Assembly (NCBI GenBank): GCA_965243115.1 | Contig: CBDEUD010000003.1 | Coordinates: forward strand, 1,748,007-1,812,006 | Source of the DNA: Gammaproteobacteria bacterium | GTDB lineage: Bacteria > Pseudomonadota > Gammaproteobacteria > Eutrophobiales > Eutrophobiaceae | DNA: 64,000 bases | Reading direction: 5' to 3' | Part shown: piece by piece, positions 16,057 through 19,575 of the stretch | Layout: each line of letters starts with the position of its first letter | How positions within the stretch are numbered: the first letter of the stretch is position 1 | The notes under the pieces: model-generated | What the model was told of the DNA's origin: nothing | The model's database searches: none | Seen by the model: the letters and a program-made list of their open reading frames with translations, nothing else | Made by a program: the position numbers and the translations under genes

Positions 16057-16101
16057 CTGGTAAATTAACTCTTGCACCAGTTCAGACAAACATCTATAAA
16101 T
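16057..16101 (+). promoter_or_regulatory. sigma70-like promoter with conserved CTGGTAAAT box
   Basis: CTGGTAAAT-N6-TTGCAC-N17-TATAAAT. Confidence 0.5.
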
Positions 16102-16170
16102 TGGTACTAGAGTGGGATTTTTACGTTTGCATCAGGTTCAATAATAAATCAAGGGATTTTCGTTTTGATA

Positions 16171-16206
16171 AAAATGCCCATGCATTGACGCATGGGCATT
16201 TTTATT
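16171..16206 (+). terminator. intrinsic terminator between the promoter and the small-ORF/Q-like operon
   Basis: 13-bp perfect inverted repeat AAAATGCCCATGC / GCATGGGCATTTT with a 6-nt loop, followed by TATTG. Confidence 0.55.
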
Positions 16207-16433
16207 GTGTCAAGTTTGCAGATAAGGTGCCGGCCGGCATACACACCCGGAGTGGATGTGTTGTCTTGCGCCGGCATGTATTCGGCAATATCTCGAGCTC
16301 ACTCGGCAGTAACAAAAACAAGCAGTCACACACCTGGTAATTACCCGCTGTTACCTCTACAGGGCGTCATGCTGTGACTGCAGTGCGTTCGATAACCATA
16401 TAACAAAATATAAATCATGAGAGGAGGTGGTAT

Positions 16434-16679
16434 ATGGATAATAAAATAGCTTGTATTCTCAACGAGCAGATGAAAATCCTATTTCGCGGCGATGCGCTGT
16501 CCGTCCCCAGTAGGCATATATCAGTCAGTGATATGTATGAGCTCAGGTGTTTCGATATAGAGTTGATCAAGGCGTATATGCCTTACCTTGGCGAGGAGGA
16601 ATCAAGGCGCGCCAGAAAAACGATAACCATGCTGGAGGCCCAGTTGGATGGTATTCGTTACATCAAGTTGATGCATTGA
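16434..16679 (+). CDS. small hypothetical protein (81 aa), translationally coupled to the Q-like gene
   Basis: Strong SD GAGAGGAGGTGG 6 bp upstream. Its stop overlaps the downstream start. Confidence 0.4.
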   Translation: MDNKIACILNEQMKILFRGDALSVPSRHISVSDMYELRCFDIELIKAYMPYLGEEESRRARKTITMLEAQLDGIRYIKLMH

Positions 16680-16680
16680 T

Positions 16681-17058
16681 ATGAAACGGCGTAATTCAGC
16701 ACAAGTTATCGAACCCACCGCCGCCATCGAAATAAGCCTGTCCCATTGGGCCCGCTGGGCCAGGGTAAAACGCAATTTCGGTCTGGGTTTTCCGAGTGAA
16801 ACCCGCGAGAGCAAATTGCGGCGTGAGGGCTTCAGTCTGTCCAAAGGATATCAGCCCAGGTTGCCGGAAGACCGGGAGGCCGAGAAAACCGAAAAGGCAA
16901 TATGTGAGATGCCGGACAAACTGAAAGCGGTAGTACTCAAATATTACCTGCATCCGGGCAGTGTGATACAGAAAGCCGATGAATTAAATATGAGTCGCGT
17001 CACTTTTCATGAATACCTGCGCATGGCCAAGTACTGGTTACTGGGGAAATGGTCATAA
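16681..17058 (+). CDS. phage antitermination protein Q-like regulator (Phage_antitermQ-like) or sigma-region-4-like HTH protein
   Basis: 125 aa. SHWARWARV...GLGFPS...LPxxLKAVVLKYYL...ADELNMSRVTFHEYLRMAKYWLLGKW matches, from memory, the Q82-type antiterminator family pattern. Confidence 0.4.
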   Translation: MKRRNSAQVIEPTAAIEISLSHWARWARVKRNFGLGFPSETRESKLRREGFSLSKGYQPRLPEDREAEKTEKAICEMPDKLKAVVLKYYLHPGSVIQKADELNMSRVTFHEYLRMAKYWLLGKWS

Positions 17059-17112
17059 GGAAGCACATCGACAATCTGTCTCTGATGCGGGTCGAGCATC
17101 CGGACCGGACAT

Positions 17113-17694
17113 ATGGCAAATAGTAGCGATTTAGATGACCGCTCTGCACTGGAACAACGACTTACCACCGTCGAGGTCAGTTACCAGTCCCTGGATAACC
17201 GGCTTGATGATATCCAGGAATCATTTATCAAGCGGTTTGAAGAAATCAAATCTCAACTTGCCCAGGTAAGTCGCGATTTTTCCCATGCCCAGAAGTTTCC
17301 CATCGCCACGTTTATCAGTGCCTGTACATTGATCCTGGGAATTATTATCGCCCTGGGCAGCGGCTATATCGGCAAACCGCTGGCGGAAGTAAAGAACAAG
17401 CAGGAATGGGTGCTGGATCGCCTGTGGACAATGAAATACGAAGCAGGCAGGAGCGAACAGATAATCAATCGAAACAAGGAAGATATTACCAAGCTTGACA
17501 CGAACCTGCAGCGGGAGATGCGGGACCGGGACGAGGTTATCCGGCATGAACTCGAAACCAACATAGAGAAATCAGCAGAGAGTATCAGGCATATCGAAGA
17601 GATAATCCATGATCTGCAGGAGAGCGAAAAGGAAAATTTCAGCCTGTCGGATTTCCAGTGGGCCTATGAAAATTACCTGAAGAAAGAGGAATAG
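17113..17694 (+). CDS. coiled-coil protein with one TM helix
   Basis: 193 aa, heptad-rich N- and C-terminal regions with a central hydrophobic segment. No family recognised. Confidence 0.45.
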   Translation: MANSSDLDDRSALEQRLTTVEVSYQSLDNRLDDIQESFIKRFEEIKSQLAQVSRDFSHAQKFPIATFISACTLILGIIIALGSGYIGKPLAEVKNKQEWVLDRLWTMKYEAGRSEQIINRNKEDITKLDTNLQREMRDRDEVIRHELETNIEKSAESIRHIEEIIHDLQESEKENFSLSDFQWAYENYLKKEE

Positions 17695-18007
17695 GAAAAT
17701 CCTGTTCCGCATCTGTGGCCGGAAACGGCAGGCAGGTTCCCGGCGGAGTTTTTACCTCCATACTACCCTCCCCCCAAAGCTCCGCCAGCCAGGGGCACCG
17801 GATCGTAGTTGATCCGTTTGGACATATCCCGCCCCTTCAAATGTTAAATTTGATTCGGATATGTCCTTTTTTCCTGGTAGAAAAAAGATGGACATTGTTT
17901 GAACGAGGAACTATAAATTGCATGCAGGCTGATATCTACGCGTCCGGGGAACGGTTAGACCCGCGCAGGTTGGCCCATTGTTACGGTAAATCGCAGGATG
18001 CCGCCTG

Positions 18008-18052
18008 CTGGTAGATAAATTGTTGACTTTGTTTTAACAGGAAACCGATAAT
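18008..18052 (+). promoter_or_regulatory. sigma70-like promoter of the eCIS structural operon with CTGGTAGAT box
   Basis: CTGGTAGAT-N6-TTGACT-N18-GATAAT. The spacer contains GTTTTAACAG. Confidence 0.5.
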
Positions 18053-18102
18053 TACGACTACACTGCTGAACGTCTTCATTTGAAGGCGCCAGACAACAAA
18101 AC

Positions 18103-18139
18103 AGACCCGTTCCGGCATCCCGGAGCGGGTTTTTTTTTA
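18103..18139 (+). terminator. intrinsic terminator 24 bp upstream of the first sheath start codon
   Basis: AGACCCGTTCCGG loop CATC CCGGAGCGGGT followed by 9 T. Confidence 0.65.
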
Positions 18140-18162
18140 CCTGCATTAACGAGGAAATCACG

Positions 18163-19575
18163 ATGGTTGACTATAAAACTCCGGATGTCTACACGCTAGA
18201 GAAATCCATTCTCCCCCCCGCAATCGCAACGGGCGCATCGGCCGTGCCTGCGTTCGTCGGTTATACAGAGAAAGCGCAGCATAACGACGGCAACAGCCTG
18301 GTCAATGTGCCGACCCGTATCAGCTCGCTGCGCGAGTTTGAAAGCCGCTTCGGCCTGGCGGAACAAACCAGGTTCAGCGTTGAAATTGATGCCGGGACGG
18401 AGGCCGTGGCAATCAAGACCAATCCCGGGTTGTCCTACCTGATGTATCACTCACTGCAGATTTACTTCGCCAACGGCGGCGGCGCCTGTTACATCGTCTC
18501 CGTCGGCGCCTACGGAACCGCCCGCCCGAGTTACGCAGCATTGAAGTCCGGCCTGGATCTGCTGGAAAAAGAAGATGAACCGACGTTGCTGCTGCCGTGC
18601 GATGCCGTCAACTCATCCTCTTATCATGATTATGTGGCCGACCTGCTCGCGCAGTGCAGCAGGATGCAGGACCGTTTCGCCGTTATCGATATGGACGGAC
18701 GGGACGCGGAGGTATTCAGGACGGCAATCGGTTCGGAATCCCTGGATTACGGTGCAGCCTATTATCCCTATCTGCATACGAACCTGCCGTACCGTTACGT
18801 TGATGGCGGCGCAAATGCCGTGCAGGTCACAATCCATGACAGTGCCGCACCGGCGCAGGCATCCCGGAACGGACAGGAACAGCAGGCCCGGGCGCCGGAA
18901 GCGTTCGACCTGGCTGCCCTGAATGACCCGGATAATACGAATTACAGTGTAGCCAGGTATCATGCCGTCACGGAATTGCTGGACAGGCAGAGGGTTACGC
19001 TTCCTCCCAGCGCGGCAATCGCCGGGGTGATCGCCAGGAGCGACAGTGAATACGGTGTCTGGAAGGCTCCGGCCAACCTCAGCCTGAATGCGGTAACCGC
19101 GCCTGTCGTAAAACTGGACAACGACCGCCAGGCTACCCTGAATGTCGATGCCACGGCAGGTAAATCGATCAACGCCATACGTTCCTTCAACGGCAAGGGC
19201 ACCCTGGTCTGGGGCGCCCGCACCCTGGCGGGAAACAGCAACGAATGGCGTTATGTCCCAGTCAGGCGGCTGTTTCTGCAGATGGAGACCGATATCAAGC
19301 GCGCTACGTCTTATGCCGTATTTGAACCGAATAACGCCACACTCTGGACCCGGCTGCGCACCCAGGTCGAGAGTTACCTGACGCAATTATGGCAGGACGG
19401 GGGTCTGGCAGGCGCCACGGCTGACGAGGCCTTCTTTGTCCGGGTAGGCCTGGGCGAAACCATGGATGAGCAGGATATCCTGGAAGGCCGCCTGAACATC
19501 ACGGTGGGCGCGGCGGCGGTACGGCCCGCGGAATTCGTCGTCTTCACTTTCACCCATACATTACAGGATGCGTAG
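18163..19575 (+). CDS. contractile tail sheath protein, paralog 1 (Afp2/3/4-like)
   Basis: Conserved sheath C-terminal region GTLVWGARTLAGNSNEWRYVPVRRLF...AEFVVFTF. Confidence 0.9.
   Translation: MVDYKTPDVYTLEKSILPPAIATGASAVPAFVGYTEKAQHNDGNSLVNVPTRISSLREFESRFGLAEQTRFSVEIDAGTEAVAIKTNPGLSYLMYHSLQIYFANGGGACYIVSVGAYGTARPSYAALKSGLDLLEKEDEPTLLLPCDAVNSSSYHDYVADLLAQCSRMQDRFAVIDMDGRDAEVFRTAIGSESLDYGAAYYPYLHTNLPYRYVDGGANAVQVTIHDSAAPAQASRNGQEQQARAPEAFDLAALNDPDNTNYSVARYHAVTELLDRQRVTLPPSAAIAGVIARSDSEYGVWKAPANLSLNAVTAPVVKLDNDRQATLNVDATAGKSINAIRSFNGKGTLVWGARTLAGNSNEWRYVPVRRLFLQMETDIKRATSYAVFEPNNATLWTRLRTQVESYLTQLWQDGGLAGATADEAFFVRVGLGETMDEQDILEGRLNITVGAAAVRPAEFVVFTFTHTLQDA

Follow-up and report, generated by a model that had tools for sequence, protein, structure and literature searches.

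The stretch of DNA analysed here, called the window, comprises 64,000 nt of a gammaproteobacterial contig (CBDEUD010000003.1) and carries the structural operon of an extracellular contractile injection system (eCIS). Our subject is the region leading into this operon, 16057-18165 on the plus strand (all positions are those of the window), with its promoter and terminator sites and a small putative antiterminator. In this region, a promoter-like site with a hairpin and T-run is followed by a leader of ~230 nt, three open reading frames (ORFs), two tandem promoter-like sites and a terminator. The ORFs (81, 125 and 193 amino acids, aa) occupy 16434-17694 on the plus strand, between the leader of the first site (S2) and the tandem sites at 17875 and 18009 (S4 and S3), and the first of three sheath genes has its ATG at 18163, 23 nt past the end of the S3 terminator (18139). 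Pfam confirms the eCIS by the three sheath genes, two gp19-type tube genes, a base_V/VgrG-like spike and gp25; further matches in the operon are an AAA+ ATPase with a winged-helix domain, two Pvc16-like genes and an M15 peptidase.

Promoter and terminator modules

A sequence-only reading of this stretch had placed a promoter followed by a terminator at three sites, S1, S2 and S3. Their coordinates were borne out, with the correction that the -10 of S3 is GATAAT and not TATAAAT, and the three sites proved to be copies of one ~135-nt cassette (Table 1). The order of its parts is TGGTA(A/G)AT-N6-TTGnnn-N2-GTTTGAAC-like-N7-TATAAA (or GATAAT/TAGAAT), then after 5-7 nt a -10-like TAnACT, often with GGGA; the 3' part consists of a leader hairpin and then a strong intrinsic terminator. 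The upstream TGGTA(A/G)AT box, the -10-like TAnACT box, the fourth promoter at 17875 and several weaker copies go beyond that earlier description. Recurrence of the three module sites is far beyond chance: the motif CTGGTARAW-N6-TKGMM is found 7 times in the window, where 0.23 occurrences are expected, and an nhmmer profile trained only on modules of other organisms' loci (L003-L009) matches S1 at E 1.7e-9, S2 at E 2.5e-7 and S3 at E 2.1e-6. By count from our module list, TAnnnT is found 5-7 nt past the -10 in ~24 of 30 distinct modules. At the sequence level, this box lies at about +2..+7, where a sigma-dependent pause element is expected, and 20 bp downstream of the spacer box. In several copies the box is followed by GGGA, the discriminator sequence best suited to sigma region 1.2, as in lambda PR'.

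Strong intrinsic terminators had been claimed for the three sites, and this claim was borne out. Terminator hairpin energies (RNAfold) are -26.9, -17.8 and -22.8 kcal/mol for S1, S2 and S3, T-runs are present, and compensatory changes are found in orthologues; the folding z-scores of the leaders against shuffles are -5.8, -3.8 and -6.4. When the whole window was scanned on both strands, 8 terminator candidates were obtained, the three strongest on the plus strand being those of S1, S2 and S3; the three best plus-strand terminators follow the three best modules. The other candidates fall within coding sequence or antisense to it, or correspond to the S2 hairpin, which can also be read as a hairpin on the minus strand. 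In the scan of 64 kb, apart from these three leader terminators, no convincing intrinsic terminator was seen at any operon end.

The S1-type and S3-type modules of the window and of loci L001, L002, L003 and L008 (8 modules, five genomes) align without gaps over 138 nt, with invariant columns at the TGGTA.AT box, TTGAC, GTT..AA.AG, the TA.ACTG box and the terminator ends. In orthologous modules the terminator helix is 98.9% paired and 4 of 11 pairs are changed on both sides. The covariation score is 0.351 versus 0.145 in shuffles, above all 500 shuffles and all slid controls. S2 is kept wherever the examined locus extends upstream of the operon. The extra ~230-nt structured leader behind it is kept in the window, L001 and L002 and absent in L003 and L008, which have a second tandem module there instead.

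The modules might also be small-RNA genes (promoter, ~75-100-nt structured RNA, terminator) that act in trans or on the adjacent mRNA, with the 125-aa protein being an unrelated helix-turn-helix (HTH) regulator. A full module does make up a complete transcription unit by itself, with one or two stable hairpins, modules occur in tandem, and the weak sub-threshold Rfam matches include one small-RNA model. However, Rfam gave no family for the leaders at the gathering threshold, the matches below it being generic terminator-leader look-alikes only, and no riboswitch or leader family in it fits them. Moreover, the sequence between pause-like box and terminator is poorly conserved between paralogous modules, whereas the promoter-side boxes are invariant, and modules always point into a downstream gene or operon without another obvious promoter. 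The short PR' transcript of lambda (6S RNA) is a by-product of the Q system, which also counts against independent RNA genes. Taken together, we find this explanation very improbable.

Table 1. Positions of modules, leader, genes and related features (window coordinates unless a locus is named)
Feature	Position	Strand	Details
S1, before 613/629-aa gene	12053..12181	+	TGGTAGAT 12053-12060; -35 TTGACT 12067-12072; GTTTGAAC 12075-12082; 17-bp spacer; -10 TATAAA 12090-12095; -10-like TATACT+GGGA 12103-12112; leader hairpin; terminator hairpin 12147-12175, T-run to 12181
S2, before regulator operon	16058..16205	+	TGGTAAAT 16058-16065; TTGCAC 16072-16077; GTTCAGAC 16080-16087; 17-bp spacer; TATAAA 16095-16100; -10-like TAGAGT+GGGA 16108-16117; hairpin 16173-16199, T-run to 16205
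S3, before first sheath gene	18009..18139	+	TGGTAGAT 18009-18016; TTGACT 18023-18028; GTTTTAAC 18031-18038; 18-bp spacer; GATAAT 18047-18052; -10-like TACACT 18059-18064; leader hairpin; hairpin 18102-18132 + T9, to 18139
S4, tandem upstream promoter	17875..17932	+	TGGTAGAA 17875-17882; TGGACA 17889-17894; GTTTGAAC 17897-17904; TATAAA 17912-17917; nhmmer E 0.037
S7, before 1281-aa gene (58330-62175, -)	62170..62231	-	TGGTAACT-N6-TTGCAT-N2-GTCTGAAC-...-TATAAA, then TAGACT; nhmmer E 0.002
Weak divergent copy, before 776-aa ankyrin-repeat gene (9534-11864, -)	11940..11996	-	TGGTAGGA-N6-TTGTTA-...-TATATAAT, then TATCGT; nhmmer E 0.36
Doubtful inverted pair, 54461(-)/54486(+)	54441..54504	both	TTTACCAG-N22-CTGGTAAA; nhmmer E 0.19 and 5.7
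Extra structured leader	16206..16433	+	two long hairpins, ~230 nt; between S2 terminator and 81-aa ORF
81-aa partner ORF	16434-16679	+	directly 5' of Q-like gene
Q21/Q933W-like putative antiterminator, 125 aa	16681..17058	+	
193-aa single-pass membrane/coiled-coil protein	17113..17694	+	same operon as Q-like gene
eCIS structural operon	18163..43889	+	presumed read-through target
76-81-aa ORF elsewhere	L003 5754-5999; L005 9688-9918; L008 7754-7999; L009 2226-2465		
Q-like paralogue pairs	L004/L021 9083-9481 and 10001-10360; L009 1607-1981 and 2518-2877		

The 125-aa protein, its partner and their distribution

The 125-aa protein has an N-terminal LxxWxxW helix, a predicted flexible GLGFP linker and a sigma-region-4-like HTH, and its recognition helix RVTFHEYLRMAKYWLLGKWS is invariant across the family. 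In the AlphaFold2 (AF2) model (pLDDT 75), residues 14-31 form a helix and residues 65-124 a sigma-region-4-like domain. Pfam gives weak DUF1492 and Sigma70_r4_2 matches only. A sigma factor identity, of the extracytoplasmic function (ECF) or sigma-70 type, was considered and rejected because the protein has no region 2; only region-4-like matches were obtained, at residues ~65-124.

Relatives of the protein are rare, only 23 being found among 5.8 billion clustered proteins, and 4 of 14 close relatives match PF06530 weakly (best E 0.032). Residues 7-123 match PHROG 79, 'anti-termination protein Q-like', at E 1.7e-4. An exhaustive search with the family profile (E <= 0.001) collected 577 representatives of 115-140 aa, and among 66 sampled members of this extended family 18 match PF06530, at best with 3.3e-9. 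One bridging homologue, P0035, matches the family profile at E 2.8e-16 and scores 26.5 bits with PF06530, whose gathering cut-off is 26; another, P0029, falls just under that gathering score. In hhalign the extended family aligns with Q933W with a probability of 90% (single sequence, E 1.6e-6) or 83% (family, E 8.6e-6); the two alignments share one register and span ~110 columns. Q933W in turn is homologous in sequence to Q21 (E 1.7e-7), whose structure has been solved, and Q21/Q933W have been assigned to PF06530 (10.1101/651190). The bridging homologues, PHROG 79 and hhalign support placing the 125-aa protein, by remote homology, as a putative distant and divergent member of the phage 21/933W Q lineage. 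From the other side, a hidden Markov model of close Q933W relatives found only four weak matches among 150 family representatives, and the lambda-type and 82-type Q models of Pfam gave no match at E <= 1 for the 125-aa protein or at E <= 10 for the 14 relatives.

The two bridging homologues also match the PA0613 family (NCBIfam NF051483) over the full length (E 2.6e-9 and 2.6e-6), with scores of 37 and 28 bits against a cut-off of 100 bits; the 125-aa protein matches it partially and below the cut-off (14.1 bits, E 0.042). On the PAO1 map, PA0613 lies at the head of the P. aeruginosa R/F-pyocin cluster, beside the holin. PA0612-PA0613 have been called 'adjacent regulatory genes' (PMC11871291), and no function for PA0613 was found in the literature searched. 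PA0613 may be an unrecognised Q-like antiterminator of pyocins.

Immediately 5' of the Q-like gene, 7 of the 8 independent loci examined have a conserved small ORF of 76-81 aa, which was not seen in the short contig L010. Its product may act as a partner, an inhibitor or a secondary-channel factor. The ORF has the motif ILxEEMKILFRG...DIELI and no family assignment. The AF2 model of the 81-aa protein (pLDDT 80) has three helices with a long helical hairpin, and a fold search with it returned generic, non-specific helical hairpins only.

Three relatives of the 125-aa protein come from metagenome-assembled genomes that carry the label Gammaproteobacteria and contain orthologous eCIS loci. Behind its Q-like gene, L008 has lysis-like genes, one of them for an SLT transglycosylase, and tandem modules and the sheath genes come next. 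In L004-L007 the Q-like gene lies ahead of tail genes, and relatives of ~55% identity (P0020, P0021) are found on AT-rich contigs ahead of a siphovirus-type tail-only cluster with gpM, gpL, gpK, gpI and gpJ homologues. L005 has one module with a terminator before the 76-aa ORF and three complete tandem promoter/TACACT/terminator units directly 3' of the Q-like gene. Since L005 and L008 have the same cassette, this regulatory unit accompanies phage-tail-derived machines of different kinds. In the tail-only (F-type-tailocin-like) loci, a pair of Q-like paralogues lies in tandem, with modules and the small ORF between them. In L022 (5688-6417), a stand-alone pair of small ORF and Q-like gene (P0025, 138 aa) lies among housekeeping genes without tail genes, and may be a remnant. 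Scanning IMG/VR with the Q-like family found no relative. A 29-nt module pattern gave 9 loci in metagenomes; none has a -10, pause-like box, terminator or Q-like gene, and they were therefore set aside as chance or coding-sequence matches.

Proposed switch and competing readings

Two DNA elements are required by Q21, one for binding between -35 and -10 and one, -10-like, for pausing in the initial transcribed region; polymerase then ignores terminators (PMC6606751; 10.1101/651190). Since the modules offer candidates for all cis parts that published Q21 needs, plus the GGGA, our reading is processive antitermination of the Q21-like kind, combined with positive autoregulation, and we consider this the main mechanism with fair, not high, confidence. 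The antitermination interpretation of the sequence-only reading was thus supported, and each of the tests named in it that was run came out in favour. Two findings that had not been predicted add to this support: the -10-like element at about +2..+7, and the recurrence of the cassette at distant phage-tail-like clusters.

According to this model, each full module would be a strong sigma-70 promoter with constitutive RNA polymerase start, and no activator would be needed, because the -35 and -10 are near-consensus with a 17-18-bp spacer. Sigma region 2 would then re-bind the -10-like TAnACT(GGGA) box, and the complex would pause. Without the protein, polymerase would stop at the intrinsic terminator, at about +42..+90, and release a short leader RNA. 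When the protein is present, its HTH, which is sigma-region-4-like, would bind module DNA, candidate sites being the spacer GTTTGAAC box, in a position like that of the Q21-binding element, and the upstream TGGTAAAT box; the latter may be the main binding site, since the recognition helix is also invariant across the family. The protein would load onto the paused polymerase and render it terminator-resistant. Read-through would then express the eCIS structural operon (S4+S3) and the 613-aa gene (S1), and probably further cargo genes. At S2, it would express the regulator's own operon, and the location of S2 implies positive feedback and a putative all-or-none switch; a trickle of expression could start the loop, since the S2 terminator is the weakest of the three. 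Tandem modules (S4+S3; three in L005) may strengthen expression in the on state while the leak stays the same. Particle, cargo and regulator genes would probably be switched on together by terminator read-through, and a Q lineage member kept with a domesticated phage-tail machine is the best explanation for the 125-aa protein.

Several observations weigh against this mechanism. The earlier reading had called the 125-aa protein Q-like; the remote link to PF06530 and the sigma-region-4-like C-terminus bear this out, but the protein itself has no Pfam Q match at E <= 1, PF06530 included. With the narrow family profile, hhalign against the Q933W family is not significant (E 0.049, probability 1%), PDB profile searches with the narrow and extended family gave marginal sigma-region-4 or DeoR HTH matches only and did not reach Q21, Foldseek against PDB gave sigma region 4 only (E >= 0.16) with Q21 not listed, and residues 31-64 of the AF2 model are of low confidence. 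On the DNA side, a conserved box between -35 and -10 does exist, as had been claimed, but the best-conserved box, TGGTA(A/G)AT (TGGTAAAT), lies upstream of the -35 at about -51..-44, two helical turns from the spacer box, and this location is no known Q-binding position. The pair in L022 has no recognisable module. Moreover, four or five weaker motif copies have no terminator. For the copies at 62231(-) (S7) and 11996(-) and the doubtful 54461/54486 pair, no intrinsic terminator was found within 260 nt, and the first two have weaker -35 hexamers than the full modules. Read-through therefore cannot be the only control of the terminator-less copies.

The position of the upstream box and these terminator-less copies with weak -35 make promoter activation, alone or added, the main rival. 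The 125-aa protein would then be a promoter-bound activator, or a dual activator/antiterminator, that occupies TGGTAAAT around -47 and brings in RNA polymerase or stabilises it, and the leader terminators would be independent attenuators or insulation. An invariant box upstream of -35 is in a typical activator position and co-occurs with an invariant recognition helix, several motif promoters have a poor -35 (TTGCAT, TTGTTA, TTGCAC) and no terminator, and the top structural matches of the protein are sigma region 4 domains. In addition, the gene transfer agent (GTA) cluster of Caulobacter combines activation by GafY with antitermination by GafZ at a single promoter (PMC11150451). However, the three best modules have near-consensus sigma-70 hexamers and should fire unaided, and the sequence relatives of the protein are Q proteins. 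Pure activation also leaves unexplained the -10-like box at +2..+7, the covarying terminators between promoter and gene, and the tandem promoter-terminator units of L005. On balance, we judge activation unlikely.

The upstream box could also be compared with the RfaH/AnfA1-type (NusG paralogue) systems of the antifeeding prophage (Afp) and the Photorhabdus virulence cassette (PVC), its GGTAG being taken as an ops-like site in the non-template strand. GGTAG is common to TGGTAGAT and ops GGCGGTAGNNT; PVC/Afp operons have ops between transcription start and pvc1, and Afp is under the RfaH-like AnfA1 (PMC6748792). However, the box here always lies equally far ahead of the -35 and thus outside the RNA made from that promoter, and it reads GGTAAAT in most copies. 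The 125-aa protein has no NusG or KOW similarity, and no NusG-like gene was found among about 35 window ORFs scanned. Box position and lack of a NusG-like protein led us to reject this idea, to which we give almost no credence.

Antitermination by a Q21-lineage factor may be extended to a new promoter grammar, with a high-affinity anchor box upstream of -35 and a second box in the spacer. In this extension, a single small protein would serve as activator at cargo promoters without a terminator and as antiterminator at promoters with one. As a portable cassette, the ~135-nt unit would bring new effector genes into the regulon, the copy before the regulator operon would make a bistable, self-amplifying switch for eCIS firing, and PA0613-type genes heading pyocin/tailocin clusters would be antiterminators of the same lineage. 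As a joint proposal of all these parts, it is speculative, and we hold it doubtful.

Among the weaker copies, S4 and S7 are fair matches to the module profile, and three more copies are weak; none has its own terminator. Predicted transcripts from S4, which is conserved in L001, L002 and L008, run into the S3 terminator. No intrinsic terminator was found in the ~100-nt leader of S7. The copy at 11996(-), also without terminator, is conserved in L001. The doubtful pair has only the upstream box and TTG in common with the cassette and sits between divergent genes of 921 aa (eCIS_core and GT20) and 515 aa (trehalose phosphatase). A palindrome, TGTAATCAATTACA, after its minus-strand -10 looks like a LacI-family operator, and the pair is probably under LacI-type control.

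Large genes lie behind several copies: a 776-aa ankyrin-repeat protein with Pro-rich repeats, a 613/629-aa protein without domain (12189-14078, plus strand) and a 1281-aa protein without domain (positions of the first and last in Table 1). These are candidate eCIS cargo or toxins marked by the cassette. Within 51615-56067, the divergent pair encodes a fusion of eCIS_core (DUF4157) with a family-20 glycosyltransferase (GT20, trehalose-6-P synthase type) in the 921-aa protein, and the 515-aa trehalose phosphatase; genes for a GH65 phosphorylase, a HAD protein, a glucokinase and a LacI protein adjoin them. This group may be trehalose-making eCIS cargo. A regulator with MalT-like tetratricopeptide repeats and a LuxR-type domain (62244-63884, minus strand) ends 12 bp before S7, and may form an extra regulatory layer. 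The 193-aa protein is placed where L008 has its lysis-like cassette (SLT), which is weak evidence for a possible lysis accessory.

An ECF sigma factor gene lies at 14230-14814, and an ECF sigma, FecR-like anti-sigma and TonB-dependent receptor set (14230-15866, 44868-47264) is inside or beside the eCIS island; a sigma-70 r4_2 gene is also close by in L008. This set could be a cell-surface-signalling input that starts the Q loop. An ECF-type promoter was sought by eye in the 16206-16433 leader, with no convincing candidate.

Outside the RfaH/AnfA1 case, little is understood of how eCIS particles and their cargo are turned on, and this limits the use of eCIS as programmable protein-delivery tools. 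If the antitermination model is true, one small protein together with a 135-nt cassette would account for expression that is heterogeneous and all-or-none, the cassette would predict cargo among neighbouring genes, and the compact switch would offer a portable control part. Q21-type antitermination would also extend from phages and GTAs to contractile injection systems and tail-only bacteriocin-like clusters, with the PA0613 family of pyocin clusters as a testable relative.

Comparison with known systems

Q-type antitermination is textbook knowledge. Like lambda Q with PR'-qut-tR', to which the sequence-only reading had likened the locus, the system proposed here would combine a constitutive promoter, a sigma-dependent pause, a terminator and processive late-gene read-through. 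The logic of that analogy is retained, but the protein belongs to a different family and has no zinc finger, and lambda Q is not known to be autoregulated through its own qut, in contrast to what is proposed for S2.

Q21 consists of H1, a flexible nozzle-forming segment and a sigma-region-4-like H3-H6 domain (PMC6606751; 10.1101/651190). The 125-aa protein resembles Q21, 933W Q and DLP12 QuuD (PF06530) in small size, N-terminal LxxWGxW helix, a predicted flexible middle and sigma-region-4-like HTH, and in a gene located just before lysis and structural genes. The cis elements are also alike: a strong sigma-70 promoter, a spacer box, a -10-like box in the initial transcribed region, and a terminator no more than ~100 nt away. 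The annotation of 933W has pR', qut and a terminator in the ~80 bp after Q. In contrast, the 125-aa protein is only remotely similar to this group, below every Pfam threshold, and lacks the long HTH loop and the Cys cluster. The Q21-type binding element is a direct repeat, whereas the spacer box here has no clear direct repeat. An extra invariant TGGTAAAT box lies upstream of -35, each genome has several modules, one of them ahead of the operon that encodes the regulator, the host element is an eCIS and not a phage, and a conserved 76-81-aa partner gene is present. To the PA0613 family, the likeness is in the full-length matches of the bridging homologues and the weak match of the 125-aa protein.

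Other such factors are BrrG of the Bartonella GTA, which needs a -10-like element (10.1101/2024.11.20.624540), and GafZ/GafYZ of the Caulobacter GTA (PMC11150451). Like the protein proposed here, these are Q21-like or sigma-region-4-like antiterminators retained by domesticated phage-derived particles, with a strong constitutive promoter and a binding element in it; both bypass native and foreign terminators (10.1101/2024.11.20.624540; PMC11150451). However, they serve capsid/GTA clusters of Alphaproteobacteria through a single target promoter, whereas the target here is a contractile injection system or tail-only cluster in Gammaproteobacteria, and the qut-like cassette is portable and multi-copy with a putatively autoregulatory copy. 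AlpA of Pseudomonas aeruginosa controls a lysis cassette (PMC7969949); it is a predicted winged helix with no reported requirement for a sigma-dependent pause, and no sequence link to the 125-aa protein was shown. For AnfA1/RfaH of Serratia Afp and Photorhabdus PVC, processive antitermination of eCIS operons has been proposed or shown (PMC6748792), but by a NusG paralogue at a transcribed ops site; here no such protein was found among the ~35 window ORFs scanned, and there is no such site.

In full-text literature searches, no publication connected a Q-type antiterminator with eCIS or tailocins. Control of domesticated phage elements by Q21-like or analogous factors (BrrG, GafZ, AlpA) is already known. 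The mechanism proposed here is of the same class but belongs to a very divergent branch of the family and serves a new host machine. Also new are the extra upstream box of the cassette, its portability and its several copies, one of them putatively autoregulatory, and the conserved partner of 76-81 aa.

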